Below, piece after piece: positions 13,740 through 46,500 of a stretch of DNA of 52,007 nt; position 1 is the first letter of the stretch; each line of letters begins with the position of its first letter. The notes beneath the pieces were generated by a model. The model saw nothing but the letters and a program-made list of their open reading frames with translations. It searched no databases and was not told the origin of the DNA. Source of the DNA: a virus (taxonomy: Duplodnaviria > Caudoviricetes); IMG/VR virus record IMGVR_UViG_3300042360_000367, positions 1-52,007 of that record; one strand, given 5' to 3'. A program made the position numbers and the translations under genes.

Positions 13740-13777
13740 GTTTCAGGCCGAGGGAAATCTTTGCATGCGCGTTCCCC

Positions 13778-13813
13778 AAAAGCGAAACCCGCCGCGGTTT
13801 CCCGGGGCGGGTT
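13778..13813 (-). terminator. Rho-independent terminator closing the early-left operon and cassette array
   Basis: Minus strand AACCCGCCCCGG-GAAA-CCGCGGCGGGTT followed by TCGCTTTT. Confidence 0.7.
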
Positions 13814-13967
13814 GATGGTGGAAATTTCAGGGCGAGTTCGCCCAACCAGTCAGTGCTGTCTAGCAGCAGTCACCCGGCACAGCCGGGAAGCGTGGGGCCT
13901 GGAAGGCCCGATGACGTGGCGCCCTTGCGCGGGCTGGAGGGATTCTGCACCCAACTTGGGGAGGGTG

Positions 13968-14333
13968 TCACCCTTCGCGCTTTCCCAACCCAGCCAGCGT
14001 GCGCCGGCTCGGCGCCTTGGGCCAGCGCTTGCTCAGCAGTTCCCACAGCCGCGTCAGGCCGGCGGCGTCTGTCAGCACCTCGCCATCGATCTCGGCGGCC
14101 CACTGGTCGCTGCGGTGCTGCGGGTCGCGCATCAGGCGCAGGATCACGGTCTTGCCGTTGATGCAGCCGCCCAGCCAGTCCCCATGCACCGGGGCCAGCG
14201 GCGGGTAAGCCGGGGCCGGGCCGGCGATGCTGGCGGCCTCCCGCGCCGCGTTTCGGCGCTTGTGTGCGCCTGGCGTTGCGTTGTAGGCGGCCCAGCGGCT
14301 GCGGGGCCTGTGCACACTTCGGAAGGTTGGCAT
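13968..14333 (-). CDS. Hypothetical protein, first gene after the cassette array in transcription order
   Basis: 121-aa ORF; its ATG overlaps the attI-like L box. Confidence 0.6.
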   Translation of the reverse strand: MPTFRSVHRPRSRWAAYNATPGAHKRRNAAREAASIAGPAPAYPPLAPVHGDWLGGCINGKTVILRLMRDPQHRSDQWAAEIDGEVLTDAAGLTRLWELLSKRWPKAPSRRTLAGLGKREG

Positions 14334-14348
14334 ATCTACGGGTTAGGC
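14330..14348 (+). other. attI-like simple recombination site at the array boundary
   Basis: GCATATC (reverse complement GATATGC, 6/7 to GTTATGC), 5-bp spacer TACGG, then G|TTAGGC; same L-5bp-R layout as attI; no attC hairpin upstream. Confidence 0.5.
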
Positions 14349-14349
14349 G

Positions 14350-14541
14350 TCAAGGCAGCACCTTCAGCGTGCTGGCGTCGTAGCACTTAAAGCCTTCCCA
14401 CGCCCAGGTGCCGCGCAGCCGCTTCCCACCCTTGGCTTCGCAGTCGGCCTTGGCCGTCACCGCGCCAGTAAGCGTGAGCGCAATGACGACCAGCGCCGCC
14501 ACAATGAATACAGCCTTCAGTTGCTCTCTGCCTGTCAGCAT
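14350..14541 (-). CDS. Cassette 1: small membrane protein
   Basis: 63 aa, one TM helix and a Cys pair; fills the space between the GTT site and attC1. Confidence 0.65.
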   Translation of the reverse strand: MLTGREQLKAVFIVAALVVIALTLTGAVTAKADCEAKGGKRLRGTWAWEGFKCYDASTLKVLP

Positions 14542-14544
14542 GAC

Positions 14545-14643
14545 GCCTAACCCTTCGCTCAGCGCGACCCCGAACGGCGGGGTCTACCGTTGCGCCCTCC
14601 AGCGCCTCAGCGCCGCTCGGGTCGCGGTAGCTATGCGTTAGGC
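14545..14643 (+). repeat. attC site 1
   Basis: GCCTAAC-CCTTC-GCTCAGCGCGAC...GTCGCGGTAGC-TATGC-GTTAGGC. Confidence 0.8.
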
Positions 14644-14889
14644 GCTCTTGGCTGCAAAGTATTGGCGCTGCCAGTACGGCCAACGAATGCTGAAGCAAAT
14701 TAAAAGGTGCAAAAGACCAGGCCAAGGCCCTAGCACTCCGTCGCCTGTAGCGAACCAAACGTTGGCAATTACGAGGTTTGCCCAGAAGGCGCGGTCTTCG
14801 GCGCTCGTTGGCTCCGCGTTCGCGCCTAACCCCTCGCTCAGCCCCCGACCTGCGTCGGCGTTGTGGCTTGGGCTCGCTTCGTCTTTCAT
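14638..14889 (-). CDS. Cassette 2: small membrane protein starting inside attC2
   Basis: AAGGAGG SD and ATG inside attC2; stop is the TTA at the crossover. Confidence 0.7.
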   Translation of the reverse strand: MKDEASPSHNADAGRGLSEGLGANAEPTSAEDRAFWANLVIANVWFATGDGVLGPWPGLLHLLICFSIRWPYWQRQYFAAKSA

Positions 14890-14928
14890 GGTCTCGCCTC
14901 CTTGTCGGGGTTAGCTCGAACGTTAGCC
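14824..14928 (+). repeat. attC site 2
   Basis: GCCTAAC-CCCTC-GCTCAGCCCCCGAC...GTCGGGGTTAGC-TCGAAC-GTTAGCC. Confidence 0.85.
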
Positions 14929-15204
14929 GGCTACCAGCACGCCACGGGTGCGCAGGTAGTGCAGCGCCGCGTATCCCTCGCTGTCCGGCTGCGCGGCGTG
15001 GTCCACGATCACGCCAGGGAAGTCGCGGCCCATCACGTTGCGCGGCTCCAGCCACGACATCGGGCGCACCACTAGGTCATCGCGGCCTAGCTTCTTCGCC
15101 AGTTCCTGCGGGTACGCGGTGCGGCTGTTGCACCACACAAAGACCGCTCCCACCGGGGCCTCGGTCATCTGGCGTGTCGTGGTTCCTGTTCCTCTGTCGC
15201 TCAT
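14923..15204 (-). CDS. Cassette 3: hypothetical protein
   Basis: ATG at 15204 after AAAGGAACGAGG; MSDRGTGTTTRQ...GVIVDHAA; stop at the crossover. Confidence 0.7.
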   Translation of the reverse strand: MSDRGTGTTTRQMTEAPVGAVFVWCNSRTAYPQELAKKLGRDDLVVRPMSWLEPRNVMGRDFPGVIVDHAAQPDSEGYAALHYLRTRGVLVAG

Positions 15205-15231
15205 CCTCGTTCCTTTCGCGCCGGACACGCC

Positions 15232-15332
15232 GGCTAACTCGTCGCTCAACCGGAAACCCCCGGCAGGGCAGCGCTCGCGCGCTTCGTCACTTGCAGTAGC
15301 TGCCGGGGTTTCCGGTTAGCTCTGCGTTAGGC
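15232..15332 (+). repeat. attC site 3
   Basis: GGCTAAC-TCGTC-GCTCAACCGGAAACCCC...GGGGTTTCCGGTTAGC-TCTGC-GTTAGGC. Confidence 0.85.
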
Positions 15333-15746
15333 CGCTTGGGCACTTGGCAGGTACTCGGCCGGCACGTCCCGCAGTTCGCTGGTGTCGATGGTGTAGCCGA
15401 CCCGCTCTGCCTTCCGGAACTTGTGCGAGTGCTCGGACCACTTGAATTTGTATTCGTGACCCGCAGGCGCCCCAACATGGCGCACAACAAGCATGCCGCC
15501 CGGTGTGCGCCGCACAATCACCACGCGGCCCGCGTCTTCTTCGTTGCCACTTCGCCAGCGCCGCACACGCACCATGCGGCACTGCGGCAGCGCAGCGTCG
15601 GCCTCGGTCTGCGCTTGGCGCACAGCGGCATAGGCGGCGCCGTGTTCGGCTTCCAGCCGCTTCAGCGTGTCCCTCGCTGCGGCAACTTCGGCGGCTTTGG
15701 CGCTCAGCGCGGCCTCAGCTTCGATCACTGTCTTTGGCTTCTTCAC
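15327..15746 (-). CDS. Cassette 4: hypothetical protein
   Basis: GTG start after GGAGAG; 139 aa; stop at the crossover. Confidence 0.7.
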   Translation of the reverse strand: MKKPKTVIEAEAALSAKAAEVAAARDTLKRLEAEHGAAYAAVRQAQTEADAALPQCRMVRVRRWRSGNEEDAGRVVIVRRTPGGMLVVRHVGAPAGHEYKFKWSEHSHKFRKAERVGYTIDTSELRDVPAEYLPSAQAA

Positions 15747-15774
15747 TGTTTGCTCTCCAAGGTTGTAGCGGGCG

Positions 15775-15894
15775 GCCTAACCCATCGCTCAAAGCCGACC
15801 CCAAGGGGCCGGCGGCTTGGTTTGTGCTCGTGTGTTCCGTGGTCATCGTTGCTCCTGTGCAGCCCCTTGGGGCGGTTCAGCTCGATCGTTAGGC
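15775..15894 (+). repeat. attC site 4
   Basis: GCCTAAC-CCATC-GCTCAAAGCCGACCCCAAGGGG...CCCCTTGGGGCGGTTCAGC-TCGATC-GTTAGGC. Confidence 0.85.
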
Positions 15895-16161
15895 CTTTTG
15901 CCGCCGCACTTCTGCAATGGCGTTCGCTGCGTCGTCAGCCTGCCGCGCATAGAACATCGACAGTTTCTGTGCTGCCTCGGCCAGCTTGCGCAGGTCGCGT
16001 CGAATGCGGCGCTCCATCGCTGTATCGGTTCCAGGCACACCATGCAAACCGTCGTTCTGGTGCGTGTCTAGCACCGCCGCCACGGCGTCAAAGGTACGCC
16101 GGGCCTCGGCTGCGTTTTGCAGTTCATCGGCCAGTTGTCCAAGACTCTTTGCCATCGTCAT
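15889..16161 (-). CDS. Cassette 5: hypothetical coiled-coil protein
   Basis: GGAGAGG SD; 90 aa; stop at the crossover. Confidence 0.7.
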   Translation of the reverse strand: MTMAKSLGQLADELQNAAEARRTFDAVAAVLDTHQNDGLHGVPGTDTAMERRIRRDLRKLAEAAQKLSMFYARQADDAANAIAEVRRQKA

Positions 16162-16178
16162 CCTCTCCGGCCACCAGG

Positions 16179-16282
16179 GCCTAACTACTCGCTGAACCCC
16201 GCGACCCGCTACGGCGGGCCGCTCCTGTGTTTCTGCCTACTCCGCAGCGCCGCAGCGGTCGCGGTTAGCTCGAACGTTATGC
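16179..16282 (+). repeat. attC site 5
   Basis: GCCTAAC-TACTC-GCTGAACCCCGCGACC...GGTCGCGGTTAGC-TCGAAC-GTTATGC. Confidence 0.85.
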
Positions 16283-16558
16283 AGCACCAACAGCCGCGTC
16301 CCACTCGCGCCGCAGCTTGTCCAGAATCTCGGCGTCGTGTGTGCTGAGCGGCTGACCCACGCGCTGCGCGAGATTGAAGGCCACATCGCTAAGCTGGCCG
16401 CCCACAGCCTTAGTGGCAGCGTGTCGCTTGTCGCAGCCGGCAATCGCCAGCGCCTCAACGCGCTGCGCAAACGCATGTACGGTGCGCCCGGTCGGTGCGC
16501 CTTCGGGAGCGCCGCGCGTTACGTCGCGCCATTCTCTGTTCGCAGTTTTCCTGTCCAT
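16277..16558 (-). CDS. Cassette 6: hypothetical protein
   Basis: ATG at 16558 after AGGAGA; MDRKTANREW...; stop at the crossover. Confidence 0.7.
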   Translation of the reverse strand: MDRKTANREWRDVTRGAPEGAPTGRTVHAFAQRVEALAIAGCDKRHAATKAVGGQLSDVAFNLAQRVGQPLSTHDAEILDKLRREWDAAVGAA

Positions 16559-16591
16559 CTTCCATCTCCTGTAGTGCGCCACCAGGGCGCT

Positions 16592-16676
16592 GCATAACTC
16601 GCGTTTCGAGCAGACGCCCAGCGGCGTAGCTCACTCCGGCAGCGCCACGCGGGCGCTGCTCAAACTATCGTTAGGC
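16592..16676 (+). repeat. attC site 6
   Basis: GCATAAC-TCGC-GTTTCGAGCAGACGCCC...GGGCGCTGCTCAAAC-TATC-GTTAGGC. Confidence 0.85.
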
Positions 16677-16678
16677 CC

Positions 16679-16870
16679 TCAAGGCAAGCGAACAAAAGTC
16701 GGCGCCGGGTACGGGACCGTTTTCCAGCCGATCCATTGCTTGTCGGGTGGGCTCTGCGCTTCGTTGTCCTTGTGGCCCAGAATCTGGTAGTCCGTTTCCA
16801 GGACCACATCGCCATAGCTGCGCAGCACTTTGCCGCCTTTTTCAATCAGGGTGTGGTAATACTCGGTCAT
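16679..16870 (-). CDS. Cassette 7: hypothetical protein
   Basis: 63 aa; GGAGA SD; ATG overlaps the stop of an attC7-encoded leader ORF (ATGA). Confidence 0.65.
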   Translation of the reverse strand: MTEYYHTLIEKGGKVLRSYGDVVLETDYQILGHKDNEAQSPPDKQWIGWKTVPYPAPTFVRLP

Positions 16871-16889
16871 TGCGTTTCTCCACCAACGG

Positions 16890-17010
16890 GCCTAACCCGT
16901 CGCTCAACCGCCGACCCATCACGGCGGGTGTCTTGGTCTGGGTTCGTTTGCTCTGTGGTCATCGTTTTTCCTTTGCGCCGTGCTGGTCGGCTTTAGCTCG
17001 AACGTTAGGC
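16890..17010 (+). repeat. attC site 7
   Basis: GCCTAAC-CCGTC-GCTCAACCGCCGACC...GGTCGGCTTTAGC-TCGAAC-GTTAGGC. Confidence 0.85.
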
Positions 17011-17259
17011 CCCAATACGCTCGCCCAGCGCCTTCAGCTCTGCCCACATGGGGTCGCCTTCGGACAGCGCCTTGCTCAGTTCGCCGCAGGCCATCGCGTA
17101 GTCCAGGCACAGCGCGCGAAGCCGTTCAATCTCTGCTGCGTCGGCCTCTACGCGGTCGGCAGCTTGGCGCGCACGGTCAACAAACTGGTGCAGCCACACC
17201 GCGTCCACTGGGAAAGGCACGGGCATGCGCAGCACGCCCAACAACATCACATCGCTCAT
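17005..17259 (-). CDS. Cassette 8: hypothetical protein
   Basis: 84 aa; 'AADRVEADAAEIERLRA' coiled coil typical of phage early genes; stop at the crossover. Confidence 0.7.
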   Translation of the reverse strand: MSDVMLLGVLRMPVPFPVDAVWLHQFVDRARQAADRVEADAAEIERLRALCLDYAMACGELSKALSEGDPMWAELKALGERIGA

Positions 17260-17282
17260 GTTCTCTCGCTCCGGTAAGAGGG

Positions 17283-17352
17283 GCCTAACCCCTCATTGCA
17301 GAGCCGACCCACGCCGGCAAGCCGGCGCGGTCGGCTGAATTAGGCGTTAGCC
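17283..17352 (+). repeat. attC site 8
   Basis: GCCTAAC-CCCTC-ATTGCAGAGCCGACC-CACGCCGGCAAGCCGGCGC-GGTCGGCTGAAT-TAGGC-GTTAGCC (70 bp). Confidence 0.85.
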
Positions 17353-17583
17353 GGCTTGCAGGTCGGCGCCGTAGTCGCGCGCCAAGCAGTCGCGGTGCCC
17401 ATAGCTGACGGCGTGAGCGTTGTCGTACAGCTCTCCGTTCTCGCGTCGGTACTCGCTCCCGAACACGTACTTGAACGCCTCGCTCATCGGTTTGCCACAG
17501 CGTTCGCAGCCGCCCCAGTAATCCGAGCCGCGCCCGGTTCCTTCAATGCGCCGCACAGTGCGGCCGGTCGGCACACCCATCAC
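17347..17583 (-). CDS. Cassette 9 gene A: small Zn-binding-like protein
   Basis: CERC...HRDC motifs; stop at the crossover. Confidence 0.65.
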   Translation of the reverse strand: MMGVPTGRTVRRIEGTGRGSDYWGGCERCGKPMSEAFKYVFGSEYRRENGELYDNAHAVSYGHRDCLARDYGADLQAG

Positions 17584-17792
17584 AGCACCACGGCGGTTTG
17601 CTTGTGCGCCAGGGCGATCAAGCTGCCGGCGCGCACAGTGCGTTCAACGCTGCCGGCCAGCACAAAGCGAACGGTCTTTGCAGCAACAACCACACGATCA
17701 ATCTCGCTGCCGTCCCAGTACACCAAGCCGCTTTCGAGCTTGCTGGCTTCGATTGCGGGGAACTGTTGGCCTTTGATGTTGACGGTGTTCAT
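17580..17792 (-). CDS. Cassette 9 gene B: hypothetical protein
   Basis: 70 aa; GGAG SD; stop overlaps the start of gene A. Confidence 0.65.
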   Translation of the reverse strand: MNTVNIKGQQFPAIEASKLESGLVYWDGSEIDRVVVAAKTVRFVLAGSVERTVRAGSLIALAHKQTAVVL

Positions 17793-17893
17793 GTCTTGCT
17801 CCGGTTGGTGTTTCGATGGGTGTTATTGAATCACATAAACCAGCGCAGCACAAGCCCCTTCGCACAAGTTTTTGCATCACGTATACTCGCCGC

Positions 17894-18061
17894 ATGGAAG
17901 AACCAAAAAACCATGGTGGCCGCCCACCCGTGCCGCCTGAACAGCGCCTGGTGCAGCGCTCCATTCGCCTCACGCCTGCGCAGTGGGCCAAGATCGACGC
18001 GCAGGGGCTTGCGTGGCTTCGTGCGCTCATAGATCGTGCCCGCACTCCACCAGCCGGCTAA
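17894..18061 (+). CDS. Cassette 9 gene C: ribbon-helix-helix (Arc/CopG-like) regulator
   Basis: MEEPKNHGGRPP...VQRSIRLTPAQWAKI..GLAWLRALID; stop TAA lies in R'' of attC9 (canonical orientation); TATACT ends 6 nt before the ATG. Confidence 0.65.
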   Translation: MEEPKNHGGRPPVPPEQRLVQRSIRLTPAQWAKIDAQGLAWLRALIDRARTPPAG

Positions 18062-18121
18062 CCCTTCACTGAACGCGGACCCGTCACTGCGTGCCGGTCC
18101 GCTTTAGTTCAAACGTTAGGC
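18056..18121 (+). repeat. attC site 9
   Basis: GGCTAAC-CCTTC-ACTGAACGCGGACC...GGTCCGCTTTAGT-TCAAAC-GTTAGGC (66 bp). Confidence 0.85.
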
Positions 18122-18387
18122 GGCTCGTGGCGGGCCTGCAGTTGGCACTTCAGGCAAAGCGGCGCCATCTGCCGAACCGGCTTGCCGCGCGCCGTGCGCG
18201 CCTCCCACTCCATCACATCGCCGCTCAATTCCTGCGGGTAGCGCCACAGCCCGCACTTGCCGCACTGCTTCTGCCGCAGCCCGGCCTTGTGCTGCGCCTC
18301 GGCCCACTCGTGCCAGGCCAAGTAGCCCTCGGGCGCTTGGTCGCCGGGCTTGTAGTGCGCCTGTTCCAAGATGCAGGCAACCTTCAC
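18109..18387 (-). CDS. Cassette 10 gene A: Zn-ribbon protein
   Basis: 'PEGYLAWHEWAE..QCGKCGLW...CLKC'; reads a few codons into attC9. Confidence 0.65.
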   Translation of the reverse strand: MKVACILEQAHYKPGDQAPEGYLAWHEWAEAQHKAGLRQKQCGKCGLWRYPQELSGDVMEWEARTARGKPVRQMAPLCLKCQLQARHEPPNV

Positions 18388-18626
18388 GGCTCAATCCTCG
18401 CGTCACACTCGAATACGATGAATGGCGGCGGGGCCATCCAGACTTGCAGCGGAAACGTGCTGCGGTCGGTGCGGCGCAGGCAGTCTTCGCAGCCCTCGCG
18501 CCAGTCGCCGGGCTCGGGGTCGTAGCCTGCGCACCGCGCCACGTCTGCGGGCAGCCGCCTAACTCCTCGCTGAACCACCGGACCCGCGTCGGCGGCCGGC
18601 TTTGTCTCGTTTGCTTGCGTCATCAC
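18384..18626 (-). CDS. Cassette 10 gene B: Cys-rich small protein starting inside attC10
   Basis: AAGGAGG SD and GTG/ATG inside attC10; 'DVARCAG..CEDCLRR..C'. Confidence 0.7.
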   Translation of the reverse strand: MMTQANETKPAADAGPVVQRGVRRLPADVARCAGYDPEPGDWREGCEDCLRRTDRSTFPLQVWMAPPPFIVFECDARIEP

Positions 18627-18659
18627 GCCTCCTTGGTCCGGTTAGCTCGAACGTTAGGC
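18557..18659 (+). repeat. attC site 10
   Basis: GCCTAAC-TCCTC-GCTGAACCACCGGACC...GGTCCGGTTAGC-TCGAAC-GTTAGGC. Confidence 0.85.
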
Positions 18660-18971
18660 CCTCAAGGCTCGCAAAGCAGGGCACGCCTGCTCGCACACTT
18701 CGGCCAGCACAGCCGCCGCGATGTCGTCAAACGCTGTGTCTGATCTGCTCACGCGCCAGTGCACCGCACCCAAGGCGGCGCGCAACATTTGAATCTCCAT
18801 GTCGCGGTGTGCCAGCTCGGCCGCAATCGCACTCTTTGCGTGCAAGCCTTCCCCCGTCATCGCGCTCATGTGGCGCACAAAGAGTTCACCCTGGGCAACA
18901 TGGTCACGCTCCGCATACAGCGGGCCTAACCCCTCGCTCAGCCCCCGACCTGCACTGTCCCCGCCGCTCAT
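18654..18971 (-). CDS. Cassette 11: phage hypothetical protein
   Basis: MSGGDSAGRGLSEGLGPLYAERD..HMSAMTGEGLHAKSAIAAELAHRD; ATGA overlap with the upstream gene; stop at the crossover. Confidence 0.7.
   Translation of the reverse strand: MSGGDSAGRGLSEGLGPLYAERDHVAQGELFVRHMSAMTGEGLHAKSAIAAELAHRDMEIQMLRAALGAVHWRVSRSDTAFDDIAAAVLAEVCEQACPALRALRA
18924..18953 (+). repeat. Half attC (R''/L'' arm only)
   Basis: GCCTAACCCCTCGCTCAGCCCCCGACCTGC identical to the first 30 bp of attC2; no L'/R' arm follows. Confidence 0.75.
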
Positions 18972-20098
18972 GGCTGGCCTTTCAGGGCGGCGCCCTTGGG
19001 TGCGGGGCTGTAGTCCGGGCGCTTCCATGTGCCGCGAATGACGCTGATGCAGTCGTCGCTGTCGAGCATGTAGTCGCCCTCGGTGACGCAGTGGTCGTCC
19101 TCGGCCTTGATGGCGACGCACAGGCGCTCGCGCTCGGCTGCTAGCGCCTCCGCCAGCCCCTGCTGCACGGCATCGCGCGGGGGCTGCTCTGCCAGAGCGC
19201 CGGCCGCAAAGACACCCCCGGCCGCATCCTCAAGCGCGCACAGTTCCGCCATTTCGGCGGCGCTGCGCTCCGGCTGCTCTCGGCGCACACGGCCTGCATT
19301 CGGGCCGCCAGAAATAAGCCGCGACCGCTGCGCGGGTGTCAGGGTTAGGGGCTGCTCTGCGCGCTCGGCTGGCGTGGGGTGGGTGGCGGCTAGCTTGCGC
19401 AGTTTGCTGGCGAACAAGTAAGCGTTCTCAAGAAGATGCGCAGCCCGAGTGCACACCTCGCCGCGACGAGAGCTACCGCCGCGTAGATCGGCTGCCGTTT
19501 TCAGCCAAGCCGCAAGCTCGCCATCGTCGGGCAGTTCAGCGGGCGCCGGCTGCTCTTGTGCGGCTGGCGTGGGGTGGGTGGCGTAGAACGGGCGCCAGCC
19601 TGCGGCGCGCGCCTCGGCTTCAGTCAGCGGCGCGGGCGGCTGCGGCCCTTTGTGGAAGGCGGGGGCGTAGAAGTGGGGTGGCTCGCTGTCACGAACCCAC
19701 CACGCGGGTGCCGGCTGCTCTTGTGCGGCTGGCGTGGGGTGGGTGGCGGCAAACCGGGAAAGCATCAGGCGCTCAATGGCCCTGGCTACGGCTCGGTCGT
19801 ATTCCTGCGGTGCCATGTTGGCGCACATGATTTCGCTGCACGCCTCGTCAATCTCGGCATCCCGCAGGATGGCCGGCGCCGGCTGCTCTTGTGCGGGCGC
19901 TGCTGAAGGACACACCTGATGCCCGTTGCGAGCCCAAACGCAATCCTTGGGCGAGATTGCGCTTTGCTGCTCTTGTGCGGGCGGGTGGGCGTAGAGGGGC
20001 GTTCCCTCGGGCCGCGGCGCACCGTTCCACTCAAGCGTGTAGCGGCTCATGTGAACCTCGGCGACAAACGCCACCGGCCCGGCCTCGGTCTTGCTCAT
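18968..20098 (-). CDS. Modular early protein with repeated ATHPTPAAQEQPAPA linkers (Ead/Ea22-style mosaic)
   Basis: Start MSKTEAGP at 20098 overlapping the upstream stop; repeated linker peptides. Confidence 0.7.
   Translation of the reverse strand: MSKTEAGPVAFVAEVHMSRYTLEWNGAPRPEGTPLYAHPPAQEQQSAISPKDCVWARNGHQVCPSAAPAQEQPAPAILRDAEIDEACSEIMCANMAPQEYDRAVARAIERLMLSRFAATHPTPAAQEQPAPAWWVRDSEPPHFYAPAFHKGPQPPAPLTEAEARAAGWRPFYATHPTPAAQEQPAPAELPDDGELAAWLKTAADLRGGSSRRGEVCTRAAHLLENAYLFASKLRKLAATHPTPAERAEQPLTLTPAQRSRLISGGPNAGRVRREQPERSAAEMAELCALEDAAGGVFAAGALAEQPPRDAVQQGLAEALAAERERLCVAIKAEDDHCVTEGDYMLDSDDCISVIRGTWKRPDYSPAPKGAALKGQP
19545..19748. repeat. 39-bp perfect direct repeat (19545-19583, 19710-19748) with partial copies near 19366, 19878 and 19967
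   Basis: GCCGGCTGCTCTTGTGCGGCTGGCGTGGGGTGGGTGGCG. Confidence 0.85.
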
Positions 20099-24782: not shown

Positions 24783-24821
24783 TTCGCGTCTCCAACGCCG
24801 GGATGGCGTGAGACGCAAATC

Positions 24822-24860
24822 TAGCAAACTACTTTGCTATCTGCAAGCAAGATTTTTTGC
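24822..24860. promoter_or_regulatory. OL operators and PL region
   Basis: GCAA-N6-TTGC at 24824-24837 and 24847-24860. Confidence 0.75.
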
Positions 24861-25415: not shown

Positions 25416-26024
25416 TCAGATTTCCGAGCGCTCGATCAGCGTCATCACTGCCAGGATTCGCAGGCCATGCGTCTCCGAGTGCAAGCTGACGTAGGCGTCA
25501 TCAAGCGCCTGCGCGTGCCAGGTGCCGCCAGCACCCTGGGCGTAGCGGCGCACGTAGCGCCCACCCTCTTTGTCCTCCACCAGCACGCACTGGCGAGGCC
25601 GGGCTACATCGGCCCGCTTAAAGACCATCTTCGTGCCCGCAGGCACTTTGTCTCCCAACGCTCCATCCGGCATCATCACGGCAAATTCGCTGGGCAGTGC
25701 TCCCGACTGCATCAACAACTCCCATGTCACGATGTCGGGAATTGTTACTGCCTCGGGGCTCAGAAGCTGAGCCTGCCCGGGAATACGGCCTCCCACATTC
25801 TGGGGATGGCCTTCAGATTTCGGTGAGAAATCTCCGCGCAAAAGTGCGTCCGCGCTAGTTCTCATCACTCTGGCGAGTGACGCCAGATAACGCGGGTTGT
25901 GCACGTTGCCGGCCATCAGGTTCTCGATGTTCTGACGTGACGTGCCCACCAGCCTCGCCATCTGCGGGGCGTTCAGTTCTTCGGCCTGCATGAACTGCAG
26001 CACCTGTTCGGCGAGTGTTTTCAC
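25416..26024 (-). CDS. cI: CI-like repressor (XRE HTH plus degenerate S24 domain)
   Basis: 'LNAPQMARLVGTSRQNIENL...LASLARVM' HTH; divergent from the cro-like gene; GTG start at 26024. Confidence 0.85.
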   Translation of the reverse strand: MKTLAEQVLQFMQAEELNAPQMARLVGTSRQNIENLMAGNVHNPRYLASLARVMRTSADALLRGDFSPKSEGHPQNVGGRIPGQAQLLSPEAVTIPDIVTWELLMQSGALPSEFAVMMPDGALGDKVPAGTKMVFKRADVARPRQCVLVEDKEGGRYVRRYAQGAGGTWHAQALDDAYVSLHSETHGLRILAVMTLIERSEI

Positions 26025-26087
26025 GCAAAGCATTTTGCGGCGCTTGCAAGCAATCTTGTTTGCCTCTAGACTGGCAAACAAATTTGC
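26025..26087. promoter_or_regulatory. OR operators between cI and cro
   Basis: GCAA-N6-TTGC at 26025-26038, 26050-26063 and 26074-26087. Confidence 0.8.
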
Positions 26088-30442: not shown

Positions 30443-30731
30443 GCGGGCCTCGATGCCCCGCGCGGACGCCAAGCAGACACCGGCGCGCGGGACACGACAC
30501 CTCTACCGGGGGCAAGACGCGGAAGCAGAGGGGCGGGGTGGCGAAGGCAGCGCCCCAGCGTCGAGCGGCTACCGGGTCTATGTGGCTCCAGACGGCACGT
30601 AGTGAAGGACTCATCCGGCAGGCTGGGTCCGTCCACCAAACGGCACCAACGAAGAAAGCATTTGGCTGTTTCTCTATGAGCGCTACTACCTCACCTACGC
30701 ACGCGACGCGCCGGCCGGCAGGGGGCACGCT

Positions 30732-36365: not shown

Positions 36366-36599
36366 GTGAGCGACCCCCTGATGAGCGCTGACGAGATCCG
36401 CCGGGTGGCCGGCGGCTACGTGCAGCCGTCGAAGCAACTGGCCGAACTGAAGCGCCAAGGCTTCTGGCGCGCACGCCGCGCCCGGCTGACTGGCGAGGTG
36501 ATCCTTGAGCGCGCACACTACGAGGCCGTGTGCAGCGGCCAGGATGCGCGCCCCTCGCTGGCGCGACCCGAGCACACGCCCACACTGAGGCCCGCATGA
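36366..36599 (+). CDS. xis: Excisionase-like protein (DUF4224 type)
   Basis: 'MSADEIRRVAGGYVQPSKQLAEL..QG'; stop overlaps the int start. Confidence 0.65.
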   Translation: MSDPLMSADEIRRVAGGYVQPSKQLAELKRQGFWRARRARLTGEVILERAHYEAVCSGQDARPSLARPEHTPTLRPA

Positions 36600-37600
36600 C
36601 CCGATCATCCGGCCTGCCGCGGCGGGTCTACCTGAAGCACGGCCGCTACTGGTTCGTGGCCGTCGACAACAAGTGGCACAGCCTGACGCGCGAGCGCGAG
36701 GGCCTGCCCGCCATGTTCCGCGCGCTGGCCGCCATCACCGAGCAGGCGCGCGCCGGTGACATGATGCCGGCCGTGGTGTCGCGCTGGCTGGAAGAAAAGG
36801 CGGCTGCAGGCGATTGGTCCGAAGACACCAAGACCGACATGGACCGGGTGGCCGCCGCCATCTCCAAGCGCTTTCTGGACTTCCGGCCCTACCAAGTCAC
36901 CACGCCGGTGTGCGCCGAGTACCTCAAGACGTACCTGAAGAAGCCGCGCACCTACAACCTGCACCGCAGCGTGTTGCGCCAGGTGATGGCCGCGGCAGCG
37001 CGCGAGGGGCTGCGCGAGGGGCACAACCCCATCGACAACATCCCGCAGCGCAAGCTGGCCAAGCGCGTGCGCATCGTGACGCCGGCCGAGATCGACGCCA
37101 TGGCCGCGGCGCTGATGAAGGCCAAGCGCGGCGGCCCGGCCCACGTCCGCATGCTCGGGCTGTGCCTGAAGACCGGCCAGCGCATCGGCGACGTGCTGAA
37201 GTTCCGCGCCCAGGACTGCACCGACGAGGGCGTGATCGTTGACCAGGGCAAGACCGGGGCCCCGCTGGTGGTGGAGTGGGACGCCGAGCTCAAGGCGCTG
37301 GTGGACGAGTGCTTTGCAGGCCGGGACCGCATCGGGTTCCTGCTGGTGCAGAGCACCGGCCAGCCCTACCGCTACTCGGGCGTGCGCAGCGCCTGGGTGC
37401 GGGCCATGGAGCGCGCCGGCATCGAAGACCTGCACATCCATGACCTGCGCGGCGAAGCCGGTGCGCGCCTGGCCGACATGCTGGGCCCCTACGCCGCACA
37501 GCTGCTGCTGGGCCATGCCAGCGTGAAGATGACCGAGCAGTACATCGCAGGCAAGACGCGCAAGCGCGCCAAGCCCGCGCCCATGAAAAAGAGCGTCTAA
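36596..37600 (+). CDS. int: Phage tyrosine integrase
   Basis: 'TGQRIGD', 'HDLR', 'LLGH', 'TEQY'; N-terminal arm-binding 'LPRRVYLKHGRYWF'. Confidence 0.92.
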   Translation: MTRSSGLPRRVYLKHGRYWFVAVDNKWHSLTREREGLPAMFRALAAITEQARAGDMMPAVVSRWLEEKAAAGDWSEDTKTDMDRVAAAISKRFLDFRPYQVTTPVCAEYLKTYLKKPRTYNLHRSVLRQVMAAAAREGLREGHNPIDNIPQRKLAKRVRIVTPAEIDAMAAALMKAKRGGPAHVRMLGLCLKTGQRIGDVLKFRAQDCTDEGVIVDQGKTGAPLVVEWDAELKALVDECFAGRDRIGFLLVQSTGQPYRYSGVRSAWVRAMERAGIEDLHIHDLRGEAGARLADMLGPYAAQLLLGHASVKMTEQYIAGKTRKRAKPAPMKKSV

Positions 37601-37803
37601 GAGACGCCCCAAAACCCGCGCCAATCCTGGCGTACCATGGCCCCCAGGAATTAGACGAATCGCCCGGAAACCCGCGCCAATCCTAGAAACCCCGACTGCC
37701 TTCTAAGCAGCAGGTCGGGGGTTCGAGTCCCTCCGGGCAGGCCACATGCACATTTTGGTGATAGCGGTTACTAACGTGTCTAATTTCCGGGGTTCTGTCT
37801 AAT
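37595..37803. repeat. attP arm and accessory repeats
   Basis: AAACCCGCGCCAATCCT at 37612 and 37668; GTCTAA at 37595, 37651 (inverted), 37778 and 37797, on both sides of the core. Confidence 0.65.
37695..37744 (+). other. attP core: 3' half of tRNA-Arg(TCT)
   Basis: CTGC-CTTCTAA-GCAG anticodon arm, GGGGGTTCGAGTCCCTCC T-arm, ends GCCA; no D-arm or 5' acceptor strand upstream. Confidence 0.88.
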
Positions 37804-40467: not shown

Positions 40468-40584
40468 TCAGGGCCTGCTGAACAGCGCGGCCAGGGCGGC
40501 CACGATCAGCAGGCCCCACGGGCCCAGGGTCCAGGCCAGCGTAAGAAGCCCGGCGAGCACGGACCAGCCGCCGAGGTTGTTCAT
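40468..40584 (-). CDS. Tiny hydrophobic protein
   Basis: MNNLGGWSVLAGLL...; ATGA overlap with the giant gene's stop. Confidence 0.45.
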   Translation of the reverse strand: MNNLGGWSVLAGLLTLAWTLGPWGLLIVAALAALFSRP

Positions 40585-43500
40585 TCCTGCGGCTCCAGCT
40601 GCTGGAAGCGCTCGGCCAAGCCCGGCCGCATCTCGCGCGGCGCAGACTTCAACAGGCGAACAGACTTCTCGGTGGTCATGCTCTTCAAGCGCTCGCGCAC
40701 TTGGCTCGGGGTGATGCGGATGGGCGAGCCGGGGTTCTTCCGGTTCCATGAATCTAGCCGTTCCAGCGCCTCGCGCAATCCGGCGGGATCGGAACGGGCC
40801 AGGGCTTTCGCCATCGCGGTGACGATCTCGGTTTCCACCTGGCGCACCAAGGCCACAGCGCGGGCGCTTTCCCCTGCCACCTGCTGCGCCTTCTGCACCA
40901 CCTTGGGCTGGAAGCCCGCGGCCTTGAACCCGGCATCGGCCATGGTGGTCTTGACCACCATGTTCTCGCGCGTGTCCGGGTACATGCCGGTCTGCGCCAT
41001 CATCCCGCCCTTCACCGCGTTCTGCACGGCGATGGGCGAAGCCAGCACCAGGGCCTCCTTCATGCGGCCCTCGGCGGCCTTCCCGATGGCGTCGAACATC
41101 CGCGCCACGAAACTGCCAGCCGCACCGGCCACGTCGGCCACGTCGCGGGCGTAGCTGTCCTTCTTCAGGAACACGCCCGTGCCCGGGATGATGTTGTGCA
41201 GGCCCAGGCGGCCGGACACGTCGAACGGCGCACCGGGCAGGCCGGTGATGCCCTTGGCCAGGAAATCGGCCACCGGCTGGCCCAGGTCTTCACCCACCAG
41301 GGCGATCAGCTGCCGCGCGATCCACTGGTTGCGCTCGAAGCGCAGCGAGAAATTCTTGTCGAACACCCGCTGCATCACGCCGTCGATCACGTCCTCCACG
41401 TCTTCCATGAACGGCAGGCCATCCAGGCCCGCCATCACGGCGATCATCACCAGCGCGGCCAGCAGCGCGCGGCGGCCCTGCGGGGTCTTGGCGTTGCGCG
41501 CCAGGTGCTCCACCATGCTCACGCTGTAGGTCTTGAACGTGAACAGCAGCGCACCCACCGCCCCGCGGGCCCAGCGCGGCCGGTTGCCCTTGTTGTAGAG
41601 GAACTGCGTCTCGCGCACCGCCTTGATGGCGAACTCGTAGGGCCGCGACATCCCCTCCTCTTGCGCCGTGCGGTACGCCGCGATGAAGGTCAGGCGCCGG
41701 TTGAACAACTCCGCGAAGCTGAACGGCTTGCCCCACGCCAGGGTCAGGCGCGAGATCCCGTTGTTCACGCGCGCCCCGGCGTTGCCCAGCAGCGTACCGT
41801 CGCCGGACTGAAGCTGCGCCTTGCCGCTGGCCTGCGCCTGCAGGAAGAACACCTCCTGCGGCGCCACGATGCCGTCCTCGGCCGCGCGGTTCAGCGCCTC
41901 CGTCAGGCCCTTGTCCTTGGGGAACTCGCGCCGGCCCACGTCCTTCAGCGCCGCGGCCATGCGCACACCGGCCTTGCCCACCCCGCCGAACTGGGTCAGG
42001 TAGGGCAGCGTCACCATGAACGGCTGCGTGGCGTTGACGATGGCCGAAGCGATGCTGCCGCCCAGGAACTGCGCGAACAGCACGGAGCGCAGTGCCTGCG
42101 CCTCCTCCTGCGGGTTCTTGACGTACTCGTTCAGGCGAACGGCGTAGTCCTTCAACTGGCCCTTGCTCTGCGGGATCTCCTCGATGGCCCGCTCGGCCGC
42201 GCCAGCGTGCAGGTTGCTGGAGGCCTGGCGCGCGTTGGAGTAGATGAACGAGGCCAGCACGCGGCCCACGTCCTCGCTGAAACCCGGCACGCCCTTGCGG
42301 TGGATCAGCCGCTTCATGCCCGATCGGTTGGCCTTGGCCACCTGCAGCCACTTCTGGAACAGGCTGCTCTTGGCCACTTCGTCGCTCAGGCCCAGCTTGT
42401 CGCCGAACAGTTCCAGCGTCTCGGGCGTGACACCCGCGAACAGCTTGAACTCCTCCTCCGAGGTGGTGCCCTGCTTGATGTCGGCATCGGGGAAGTTCTC
42501 ACGCATCAGGCGCACGGCCTTGGCGCGCTCGCTGCGGCTCTCGTACATGCCGAAGAACTGGCGCACGCCATCCGGCGTCACCACGTCCAGGGTGTACTGC
42601 CCGAAGCGCGAAAGCGGCGCGTAGCCGCGGTCCTTCAGGTCTTCCACCCGGTCGGCAATGTCGATGATGCCGTTGCCACGCGCGTTCATCGCGTCGGCGT
42701 TCTCGGGCTGCTGCTCTGCCAGGTCGAACAGCCGGTCGCGGATGAGCTCGGCTGCCGTCATCAGGTCGGGCTCAGCCAGCACCTGCTCGCGCAGGTCTGC
42801 CACCTCCTCGCCACCCACGCGCAGCATGGTCGTGATGGTGAGATCGTCCAGGCTCTTGTCGGTGGCGCTGCGGAACTCGCGGTACAGCGCAATCTGGCGC
42901 GGGTTCAGCCCAAACATCTTGCGCAGCTCGCCATCGGACCACACCACGCCGGGCTTGAGCACCTCGTTGCGGTACCGGGTTTCGACGTTGGCCTCGAACT
43001 GATCTAGCGGCAGGCCTTGCCACATCTTCAGCACGCGCGGGTTCAGCAGCCGGCGGCGCAGCATCTCTTGCGCCTTGTCCTCGGCGCTCAGCTGTGCGGC
43101 CTGCGCCTCAAGGTCCACCATGCGCACCGGCTTGCCGTCCAAGTCGCGGCCCCAGCCCAGCGTGCCCTCGAACACCGGTGCGCCCAAGGCCTTCACGTCG
43201 GCCGGCGGCAGCGGGGCTTTCAGGATGTCGGTGATGCTCTCCAGCTTGGGCAGGATGCTCGGCGCGAGGTTGGCCGCCTCGGTGGCGTAGTGGCTGATGT
43301 CGTCCATGAAGTTCTGGATCGACTCGAACACCGGCCGGAAGCTGCGCTCACGCTCTGCCAGGTTGTATGGCGTGCCCACGGTCTTGTGCCACCAGTGCAG
43401 GCGGCCCAAGCTGTTGCCGAACCAGTCGCCCACCACGTACCCGGCGGGCAGGCGCACGTCGCGCAGCGCGGCGCCGGGCTTGGACAGGGCGGCGGTCAAG

Positions 43501-46500
43501 GCCTTGGTGGCGACGCTCGGGCTGCGGCTGAAGACGGTGCCACGCCCACCGGCCAGCGTTTCCGCCACGGCCTGCAGGTCAACGCCGGCCAGGTCGTCCG
43601 CGCTGATGTAGCTCGAACCGTTTTCCTCGCGGAACGGGATGCCCGCATCGGTCAGGCGCTTGTAGATGGCCAGCGCATTGGTGCTGCGGATGCTCTCGGA
43701 CTGCCAGCCCATGCCGCGCTTCTGCGCGATGTTCAGCGCCTGCAGGTACATGGTGGTGGCGGCGCCAGTCCCGGCCGGGAAGCCTTCAGCGCCCACTTCC
43801 AGCGACGAGGTGTAGACCGTCGATCCGTCGTCGCGGTTGAACTCGCGCACGTTCAGCGCGGCCCACTGCTTGCCTTCCTCGCGCGAAAGCACGAAGTTGT
43901 CCCGCGTGCCGGTCACAGTCGTGGCTGGTGTGGTGTCGAAGTCGGCGAACTTGTAGCTGCTGGTGAGATCCCTCCAGGCCCGGTCAAGGTCGGCGCCGGC
44001 GGCTTGGTCGGCTCGGCTGAACCGAATGTCAGGGTCTGCCGGGTCGAACGTGCCGCGGTTGCCCACTGCGCTCTTGATCTGCTCGGGGCGGAAGGCGATG
44101 TAGTACCCCTTTTCCGGGTCATGGATGCCGTCGTGCTCCGGCCCAGGCTTTGCGGGCCAGATGGCCGGGTTCTGGATCGACAAGTACACCGGCATCACAT
44201 TGGGCGTCGAGGCGATGTCGCGGGCAACGCCGATCTTGTCCAGCACGCCCCAGGCGTTGCCGTTGGTCGCCAATTCGCGCGTCAGCGCCTCCGGCCCCTC
44301 CTGCGCCGCGCGCATCACGCTGCGCCAGCGGCTGGCGGTCCCCATGTCCTCGCGGGCATCGCGCAGCGCAGCCTTGGTGCCAAGCCGCTGCACCACCTTG
44401 CGGGCGTCAGCGGCCGTCAGCGGGCGGTCTAGCTGCCATCGCTGGTTCTGCCACGCGAACCCAGCGCCGTTGAACGATGCCGCCCACTCCAGCTCCTGGA
44501 AGGTGGGCAAGTCGCCGCGCGCATCTGCCGCGCCCAGGCCGCCAGCGACTTTTGGGTCAGCGGTGAAGTAGAAACCCTTTCCGTACCAGGCGCGGTCCGA
44601 CTGCTTGGCCGTGTCGAATGCATCGAAGCTCTCGCGGGTGCCATGATACACCACCAGCGGCTTGCCCTCGGCGTCCACCACCTTGCTTTCGCCGAACCAC
44701 TTGCGGAAGGCCTCGCTGGTGGTCTGCGCGGCCCGGCTGAACGCCGCTTCCCCCACCCGGAACAGCGGCCCGCCGGTGCGGCTCACGTCCTCGGCACGCT
44801 TCACCAGGGCCAGCACGTCAGCATCGGTCCACGTCTTGGGCTCGATGGCGTCGGCCACGCGAGTCCACTTCAGCGCGTAGAACACGTCGGCCAGCTTGCG
44901 CAGCGCCGCGCGCATCGCGGCCACCAGGCGCGGCACGCCCTTCAGTGCCAGCACGTCGGCCACCGGCATGTCGGCCAAGGCTTCTTCTGTCGCCAGCACC
45001 TTGGAGGTGGCCAAGCGATCCGCGATCTTCTTGTCGGCCAACTCGCGCACCGCCGCATTGGTCTGGTAAATGCTGAGAAGCATCAGCCCCCGGGCGTCGG
45101 GGTTCGGCATCAGGGACCGCAGGCCGTAGTGGCGCAGTTCATGGTGCGCCATGACAAACTGCAGGCGCTCCAGGCTGGCGATGTTGCCCGGGAAGATGAA
45201 CACCTCGCCCTCGTGGAAGGCGCCCTCCACGTCGGCACTCGCGCCAGCGCTGCGGATCTTGCTCAGCAGGCTTGCCGGGGCTTGGTCGACACGCTCCAGC
45301 AGGGTGATGCGCGGGGCCTTCGGCATCGCGCGCAGCAGGGCGTCGCGGGCCGCTTCGGCGTCGGCCATGGCCACACCGCGGCCAGCGCCGCGGCTGAAGA
45401 CGGCCGGCGCCTTTACCCCGTACTCGGCCATGACTTCGCCTGCGATCTGCATCACCCGGTCGTAGTCGGTCAGATACCGCTCGGTGCGCTTGCTGTACCC
45501 GACAGTGGCCTTGATGGTGTCGATCAGACTGCCGGCGATGCTGCCCACGCGCTGCAGCAGCGTTTTGTTCTTTGCGCCCAGCGCCTGCCAGAAACCGCGG
45601 TCCATGAAGCCATCGGACAGCACTTCACCGATGAACTCTTCGCGCTGCTTGTCGGCGTTGCCGGCGTTCTTGGCGACAGGGCTGTTGACGAACTCTGCAG
45701 CGTAGCGGCCTTGATCGACGTAGGGCCGGATGGCCTGCACGAGCTGGTCGTACAGGTCCGGCCGCTCAACGCGCAGCCGGTGGGCCAACTCGTGCCCCAA
45801 GACCGAAAGGTGCGGCCGGTCGTTGCCGGTCGCGCGCAGGAAGATCGTGCCGTTGACGTATGCGCCGTTGAAGAACCCGAAGGTCCGGCGCTGGTCGTCT
45901 AGAAGGTCGGGTCGAAGGTCGAACCCTTGGAACCGCTGGCCGAAGGCTTCTGCGATGCGTCCAAGTGCCTCATTTCCAGGAACGAGTCTTCCGACATATG
46001 GAAGAACTGAATCTGCTCCGGCCCCCCGTGCGACCTTGGCAACGGCACGGTTAAGCACCCCGATGTTCCGGGCTGCGTCTGCGGAGGTGTCTTCCTGGCT
46101 TCCATCCTGCGCAGTGTACTCACCATCGTTGGTGTTGAACATCGCCACGTTGCCAGCGTCGTCGGTGCGGGTCGAACCTTCCGGCTTGTCAATCACCACC
46201 ATCCGCGCGTTGGCGCCCGTGTTCACTGGCAACGTCGGGTCCATGAAACTGCCTTCGGCCAGCTTTTCCTCGGTGCCGCCCAGGCTCTCCAGCCACTCGC
46301 GGAACTCGGTCGCGCGCTTGTTCTGGTTGGTGAAGGCAGACTCGCCCATCAGGGCCACCAGCCGGCCGCCTGGCTTCAGCAGGTCGAAGGCGTGGCGAAC
46401 GTGCTGGATGTCCCGGCCTTCGCTGAAAGGCGGGTTCATCAGGATGCGGTCGTAGCCACCTTCCTTCAGCCCCAGGAAGTCCTGCGCCACCACATTGAAG

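Follow-up and report, generated by a model that had tools for sequence, protein, structure and literature searches.

An array of inverted gene cassettes with integron-type attC sites and an attI-like site in a phage genome

The stretch analysed here, called the window throughout, comprises the 52,007 nucleotides of phage DNA at positions 1-52,007 of the virus record IMGVR_UViG_3300042360_000367, which is 81% complete. Profile scans of the window detected P22-like portal, capsid and terminase genes together with Erf, exonuclease, Cro-like, helicase, primase, NinB and lysis genes. Between 13,968 and 18,975, fourteen small genes are separated by ten attC sites, behind an attI-like site that overlaps the start codon of an open reading frame (ORF) named g0. 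An initial annotation had described this region as an inverted integron cassette array. We consider that it is probably a phage-borne integron platform, whose genes would be read from phage early leftward transcription and whose cassettes would be moved at G|TT by an integron integrase (IntI) provided in trans.

The attC sites of the array

A covariance model built solely from 44 attC sites of bacterial loci recognised all ten sites on the + strand, with scores of 31.8-71.2 bits, the best match outside the array reaching 15.2 bits. On the - strand, five of the ten sites also scored, at merely 10-15 bits. With a motif detector of our own, exactly ten sites were found in the window and none in each of 10 shuffles. 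The sites start where the initial annotation had placed them, and their lengths (66-121 bp) lie inside the attC range of 57-141 bp. In all ten, the R''/R' boxes, with conserved AAC/GTT, pair at 6-7 of 7 positions, and the L''/L' boxes score 5-7 out of 7 when base 16 is looped out and wobbles are counted half. In the sites at 14545, 15232, 16592 and 17283 the right spacer measures 5 nt instead of six. On these comparisons the ten are confirmed as genuine integron attC sites.

The orientation of the sites was established from their strand asymmetry. The extrahelical base 16 of the top strand is C in six sites and G in four (on the bottom strand, G in six and C in four), an A is present at top-strand positions 23-25 in eight of the ten, and the bottom strand folds more stably in eight of the ten, with a purine fraction of 0.57. 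The strand criteria given in the accessible part of PMC5027507 are an extrahelical base at 16, a T at 23/24 of the bottom strand, and a bottom strand that is more stable and purine-rich. In addition, the aadA7 control attC taken from the supplement of Qi 2023 (PMC9892861) shows the same asymmetry as the window sites. The + strand is the attC top strand, as first proposed, in agreement with both the criteria and the control.

The attI-like and attC sites are as follows.

14330..14348, + strand: attI-like site; 7-nt L-type box, 5-nt spacer and R box; G|TT crossover point between 14342 and 14343; shares bases with the start codon of g0
14545..14643, + strand: attC 1, 99 bp, 45.0 bits
14824..14928, + strand: attC 2, 105 bp, 58.4 bits; contains the ribosome-binding site and ATG (14889) of g2, bottom strand
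15232..15332, + strand: attC 3, 101 bp, 37.2 bits
15775..15894, + strand: attC 4, 120 bp, 61.1 bits; contains the ribosome-binding site and ATG (15846) for a leader ORF of 43 aa that overlaps the start of g4
16179..16282, + strand: attC 5, 104 bp, 56.6 bits
16592..16676, + strand: attC 6, 85 bp, 31.8 bits
16890..17010, + strand: attC 7, 121 bp, 71.2 bits; contains the ribosome-binding site and ATG (16962) for a leader of 31 aa, the stop of which overlaps the start of g7
17283..17352, + strand: attC 8, 70 bp, 40.9 bits
18056..18121, + strand: attC 9, 66 bp, 49.3 bits
18557..18659, + strand: attC 10, 103 bp, 68.6 bits; contains the ribosome-binding site and start (18626/18623) of g10b
18924..18975, + strand: half attC, left arm only; 97% identical to attC 2 over 33 nt; read as the g11 N-terminus

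Four of these sites (2, 4, 7 and 10) carry a ribosome-binding site and a start codon on the bottom strand. A half attC of the 18924 type also closes the array of a related phage, G006, where it stands next to a different gene. In the window, the g11 ATG at 18971 overlaps, at the half attC, the stop of an upstream ORF of 376 aa (18968-20098). The latter has internal repeats 165-168 bp apart and short pieces in common with G006, suggesting a modular assembly beside the half site.

Cargo genes, cassette orientation and cassette movement

Thirteen of the fourteen cargo genes lie on the - strand and one on the +, so that the proposed orientation, opposite to the attC direction, held for 13 of 14. 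The cargo was also, as had been suggested, of phage type rather than typical bacterial cassette cargo; a PADLOC scan of it found no defence genes beyond two weak g5 matches. In 8 of the 11 cassette units the TAA stop is supplied by R'. The genes and transcription signals are given below.

13778..13815, - strand: hairpin followed by a T-rich tail, which may terminate the leftward operon; 13770-13825 folds at -26.4 kcal/mol (z -2.7)
13968..14333, - strand: g0, 121 aa, ORF of no known family; holds the position of intI in IntI-bearing phages; ATG 8 nt from G|TT
14350..14541, - strand: g1, 63 aa, cassette c1 (14343-14637); G006 has an 87% homolog as its first cassette, after another attI
14638..14889, - strand: g2, 83 aa, c2 (14638-14922); TAA in R'; 100% in G006, order swapped with c3
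14923..15204, - strand: g3, 93 aa, c3 (14923-15326); TAA in R'; 100% in G006; other neighbours in L452 and lake contigs
15327..15746, - strand: g4, 139 aa, c4; TAA in R'; same body with a hybrid attC in G006
15889..16161, - strand: g5, 90 aa, c5; TAA in R'; weak phrog_18628 match, E 0.003
16277..16558, - strand: g6, 93 aa, c6; TAA in R'; 100% in G006 and G007
16679..16870, - strand: g7, 63 aa, c7; same body with a different attC in G006
17005..17259, - strand: g8, 84 aa, c8; TAA in R'; homologs in L001, L055 and L128
17347..17792, - strand: g9a (78 aa, TAA in R') and g9b (70 aa), cassette c9
17894..18061, + strand: g9c, 55 aa, the only top-strand gene; homologs in L062, L023 and L061
18109..18626, - strand: g10a (92 aa) and g10b (80 aa), cassette c10
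18654..18971, - strand: g11, 105 aa; phrog_34533, E 6e-10; TAA in R' of attC 10
24818..24846, - strand: PL-like candidate leftward early promoter, found by eye; weak, under the scanner threshold; about 10 kb from the attI end of the array

The hairpin at 13778, earlier taken for the terminator that closes the array, does fold. It was not called by the terminator scan and is separated from the cassettes by g0. A sigma-70-like site (17859-17887) is found upstream of g9c, and promoters may be present within some of the cassettes, c9 for example.

In order to compare phage and bacterial arrays, a single 18-mer of the window was used; it led to 118 viral loci and at least 240 bacterial loci, and wide flanks were used for 80 of each. 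Gene orientation was called with a strand-neutral ORF score of our own making, by which all 9 of 9 window cassettes are inverted. Among 292 viral cassettes, 224 were inverted, 12 canonical and 56 unclear, versus 18 inverted, 181 canonical and 55 unclear among 254 bacterial cassettes (among the matches listed). The same picture was obtained by locus: 58 of 65 viral contig groups are mostly inverted, and 94 of the 103 bacterial loci, a set with overlaps that was not de-duplicated, have mainly canonical cassettes (among the matches listed). Cassette inversion, as judged from these loci, is a phage trait. Furthermore, a ribosome-binding site and ATG inside attC on the bottom strand were present in 125 of 424 viral versus 20 of 433 bacterial sites (among the matches listed). 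By eye, host attC sites have GGAGG and ATG on the bottom strand with the inner arm between them, and many phage sites are without this arm. We infer that the phage sites arose through loss of the inner arm.

Gain, loss and reordering of cassettes at G|TT, one of the predictions made for related phages, was then observed in several comparisons. G006 shares with the window only cassettes and short stretches. Its array has 17 cassettes, six of which match the window, in the order c1-like, c3, c2, one other, c4, eight others, c6, two others and c7; the 11 other cassettes are inserted at G|TT. Cassettes c2, c3 and c6 are 100% identical in the two phages over their full length, with the order of c2 and c3 swapped, and identity in a different order therefore suggests recent movement. 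In the close relative L452, g0 and attI match the window at 92% up to exactly 14348, after which come another cassette and then c3. The phage G007 keeps the window order for c4-c11. No match to the array was found among GenBank phages, and no arrays were seen in the eight loci of relatives found via the exonuclease.

Among 51 near-identical cassette pairs from different contigs, 27 retain their upstream neighbour and 24 were flagged as changed. In the flagged pairs, the overlap before TT is 2-4 nt in 15, 8-12 nt in 3 and 44-54 nt in 4, the remaining 2 being truncated same-neighbour cases. The short overlaps of 2-4 nt fit site-specific recombination and are hard for homology to explain.

The attI-like site, g0 and the source of IntI

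The attI-like site is non-palindromic and is kept in 11 loci with g0, each of which has a different first cassette. Its assignment is comparative. With an attI-like site of its own, and with g0 as an ORF linked to attI, the array is not an orphan attC cluster.

g0 has 130 close homologs, in a wider family of 152 representatives. When viral loci were collected through g0 alone, attC was found upstream of it in 12 of 13, the remaining locus ending at g0. No match to g0 was obtained in Pfam, PHROG or PADLOC, and no homolog among GenBank phages; likewise, the g0 profile did not pick up the ORF that adjoins attI in G006 (probability 2.9). A structure model (predicted local distance difference test score, 70) gave no Foldseek match at E<=0.001, the top Atlas score being 0.78. 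The idea that g0 is an integrase arm-binding domain was not credible (VIA-align Z 3.1, the best overall Z being 3.6). All 4 genomes with g0 that could be compared also had IntI, the background rate being 178 of 401; the sample is too small to carry weight, and two of its g0 copies are broken. Our best guess is that g0 serves as an accessory factor, either in recombination or in gaining access to IntI. Two side observations concern its surroundings: the viral locus L400 (1219-11183) has two arrays with 20 attC matches, one on either side of g0, and in several other phages xis/int genes directly follow attI-g0 or attI-intI, the window integrase being far from the array.

The absence of intI from the window, already noted in the initial annotation, was borne out: there is no match to the integron integrase family TIGR02249 there or anywhere in the record, which is 81% complete. 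As the window is without IntI, the enzyme likely acts in trans, from a Burkholderiales host or from a co-resident IntI-encoding phage. The host, earlier proposed as the provider of the integrase, is just one possible source. IntI is plentiful in the host family (178 of 401 genomes) and scored over the cut-off in four of five bacterial genomes with this attC type. It also did so in two of 50 viral records with this attC type, both of which have capsid and tape-measure genes, and a search with one viral IntI gave 28 viral IntI loci, some of them redundant and not all checked for virion genes.

The viral IntI proteins are 41-59% identical to host enzymes. Six positions, presumably the catalytic ones, which we located by motif, are invariant in all 29 full-length IntI sequences (25 viral and 4 host). 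With just four sequences from hosts, the IntI tree is no proof of a phage clade. At the viral IntI loci, 24 of 31 cassettes are inverted, 3 canonical and 4 unclear. There, attI is followed on the bottom strand by intI, after which an excisionase-like ORF and a prophage integrase are often found; intI runs opposite to the attC top strand in 18 of 18 loci with attC detected upstream. A shared attI motif of their own lies upstream of intI in 20 of 28 loci.

A link with the window was provided by lake metagenomes. In run X10, the attI motif of IntI phages is immediately followed by 170 nt of c3 on a contig of 327 nt, and run X9 shows the same join with 30 nt. The cassette pool of the window would therefore be connected to IntI-type platforms. 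Near-identical DNA to the window is present in lake metagenomes; the start of c3 was not found in the metagenome scan.

Three further loci deserve mention. L443 and L444 have an IntI-type attI and a match to the last 48 aa of IntI only, possibly a stage of intI loss. The virus Rctr41k (L455:4680-5678) has an IntI-like protein of 47% identity, with no attC match nearby. In L359 (900-1322) the host intI is followed by an ORF that may encode the error-prone polymerase DnaE2, which it appears to resemble.

On the basis of these data, the following working of the platform is proposed. An intI on the bottom strand beside attI would be read as the end of the phage early operon, and bottom-strand transcription would then run through the array. 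Only cassettes with inverted genes would be expressed, leading to a phage-specific cassette pool with stops in R' and translation starts inside attC. An IntI from another genome would insert and excise the cassettes at G|TT and change their order, and phages with g0 in place of intI would depend on that genome's enzyme. Since insertion at attI would put new cassettes farthest from the presumed promoter, the reverse of the logic of the integron promoter Pc, the leftward promoter would not simply replace Pc, contrary to what had been supposed. Of the proposed SOS connection, the host side stood, with LexA boxes at four of four host intI genes versus a LexA-like box at one of 28 viral intI loci; co-induction of the phage is conjectural, its CI-like protein having helix-turn-helix matches only. 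This repressor (25416-26033) is without a peptidase S24 match, and its induction may need an antirepressor.

Storage of phage cassettes in host arrays, also put forward in the initial annotation, seems on present comparisons to happen, rarely. At the DNA level no match was found between viral cassettes and 434 bacterial cassette records (among the matches listed). One phage-type inverted cassette with a 60-bp attC is present in the G004 host array; its gene is 72% identical to one in the viral locus L024, where the copy lies outside any detected cassette. The G004 array (L457:6818 and 16259) has a second attI-like site, in the segment right after this cassette. Another inverted cassette occurs on a contig of a Roseateles metagenome-assembled genome (L128:3001-3370), with a protein that begins like the first-cassette protein of the IntI phage G035; this is probably phage DNA in the bin.

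Tentatively, and with clearly less confidence than in the platform itself, one could go further: Burkholderiales phages might run an integron economy of their own, in which phage IntIs and IntI-less platforms share one pool, g0 recruits or switches on IntI in trans, and early genes gain attC arms with ribosome-binding site and ATG and so become cassettes. Hints of such cassette-making are the c4 and c7 bodies with different attC sites, the half site fused to different genes, and the gene shared by L024 and the host array.

Alternative explanations and relation to known integrons

Several points weigh against the proposed platform. The evidence for it comes from sequence comparison. Sites 2 and 10 fold no better than shuffles; phage attC sites as a whole fold more weakly than bacterial ones (-0.26 versus -0.40 kcal/mol per nt), and the bottom strand is the more stable in 342 of 424 phage versus 421 of 433 bacterial sites. 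The orientation calls depend on our own ORF score, which left 19-22% unclear, and the cassette pairs and loci are not independent. The register of the window attI differs from that of the sole host attI for which a cassette array was found to follow. At the left end of many arrays other genes take the place of g0 and intI, so g0 is not universal. The c3 contigs from the lake runs are short, with a depth of about 4, and intI itself was not seen on them. As the record is 81% complete, an intI could lie in its missing part.

Other points of this kind also feed a rival explanation, in which the attC-like arms are short homology patches and Erf with the exonuclease shuffles the genes without IntI. 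Both genes lie 3-4.5 kb from the array, and IntI is not in the record. In G006 the c4 and c7 bodies are joined to other attC sites, the breakpoints falling within the arms; 54 nt are shared at the c6 junction, and the 18924 half site stands beside different genes in the window and in G006. Against this, 15 of the 24 flagged junctions share just 2-4 nt, the non-palindromic attI is conserved with different first cassettes, the extrahelical-base geometry is retained, and intact IntI genes adjoin the same kind of array in other viral records. As the sole process, homologous shuffling is thus improbable. Because of the swapped c4/c7 arms, the c6 overlap and the half site, a second, homology-based process exchanging attC arms may act besides IntI.

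Slightly less probable still is that another tyrosine recombinase, either the prophage-type integrase encoded at 36596-37600 or host XerCD, works the sites. The phage does encode such an enzyme, at the end of the rightward arm and far from the array; it has no TIGR02249 match and adjoins a tRNA 3'-half-like, attP-like stretch (37703-37745, just downstream, by eye), likely the attP core. No tRNA genes were called in the window, ARAGORN calling none at this stretch either. Moreover, the window sites belong to the same family as chromosomal attC arrays of IntI-bearing genomes, the array being next to IntI in G004, and IntI-bearing viral records have IntI and a separate prophage integrase side by side. 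Finally, passive capture of a now inert piece of a host chromosomal integron is largely refuted: attC arms do agree with those of host sites in 26-33 of 36 and 19-28 of 30 nt, and such a capture is described for Vibrio phage Va_90-11-286_p16 in the accessible text of PMC9892861, yet host cassettes are canonical and longer (median 588 versus about 400 bp) with attC sites of 126-132 bp, share no DNA match with viral ones among the matches listed, and identical phage cassettes in a different order imply recent movement.

The phage platform with IntI in trans, which we continue to prefer, can be set beside known systems. The attC type points to Rubrivivax-like Burkholderiales as hosts. Their chromosomal integrons share with the phage arrays the attC family, the G|TT junctions and the IntI family TIGR02249, and the host attI (that of G004) resembles the attI of many intI-less phages. 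They differ in having canonical genes, a long inner hairpin in attC and a LexA box at intI; phage sites are 57-120 bp long and often carry a ribosome-binding site and ATG.

Phage attC clusters are already published. In the accessible text of Qi 2023 (PMC9892861), 17 clusters of attC sites lacking integron integrases (CALINs) are reported, as rare, in 10,705 genomes, and IntI1 recombined five of six other phage attC sites. As in the window, the attC sites of these CALINs lie between small genes in phages without intI. The clusters are small, with 2-4 sites where a number is given, and the complete integrons are captured host or class 1 pieces. By our own check, the genes of phage TJE1 from that study are on the top strand, i.e. 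canonical; the attC sites of PH101 were not located. That text describes no wholesale inversion, dedicated phage attI, attI-linked ORF or phage-phage shuffling; its figures and Dryad annotation could show orientations. In our literature search, in which most subscription papers lay outside coverage, no paper was found that deals with phage arrays of inverted cassettes equipped with a dedicated attI, or with phage IntIs arranged in this way.

Two other systems offer partial parallels. As described in the part of PMC4889954 available, intI and cargo can share a transcription direction in the inverted integron-integrase group (Treponema), as at the IntI-bearing viral loci; in that group intI is flipped relative to attC, whereas at the viral loci intI keeps its canonical strand relative to attC and the cargo is inverted. 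The present array falls outside that group, the window being without intI and viral intI running opposite to the attC top strand. Short ORFs of the ORF-11 type in attI1/attC (accessible part of PMC8876359) likewise let recombination sites supply translation signals and coupling; the phage signals, in contrast, lie on the bottom strand, where they often serve to start the gene of the cassette itself.

The array was expected to be called a CALIN. It is an attC cluster with no intI nearby; the term covers neither attI nor inversion. Measured against a complete integron, an attI was found by comparison, intI beside the array and top-strand genes read from Pc were not. The element is active-looking and would be integron-like in its working, yet, lacking intI and having its genes on the bottom strand, it is not a complete integron by definition.

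Integrons have been regarded as devices of bacteria, with attC clusters in phages reported to be rare; here a single 18-mer led to 118 viral loci. If IntI shuffles these arrays, phages would trade accessory genes between otherwise unrelated genomes by site-specific recombination, and some of the mosaicism of phages would then have a defined mechanism. Reversed gene orientation would silence phage cassettes in host arrays and host cassettes in phage arrays. g0 becomes a new candidate factor tied to attI. To our knowledge, the genesis of cassettes is an open question; the swapped attC and half sites make it directly testable, and phages would be a place where new cassettes are made if they do run their own integron economy.

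Two features elsewhere in the window were recorded in addition. A Betaproteobacteria-1 RNA (RF02932), the sole Rfam match in the window, lies at 30455-30577, between the primase and NinB genes. At 40581-51992, a polyvalent protein of at least 3803 aa, with an ART-PolyVal domain and a weak methyltransferase match, runs past the window end.

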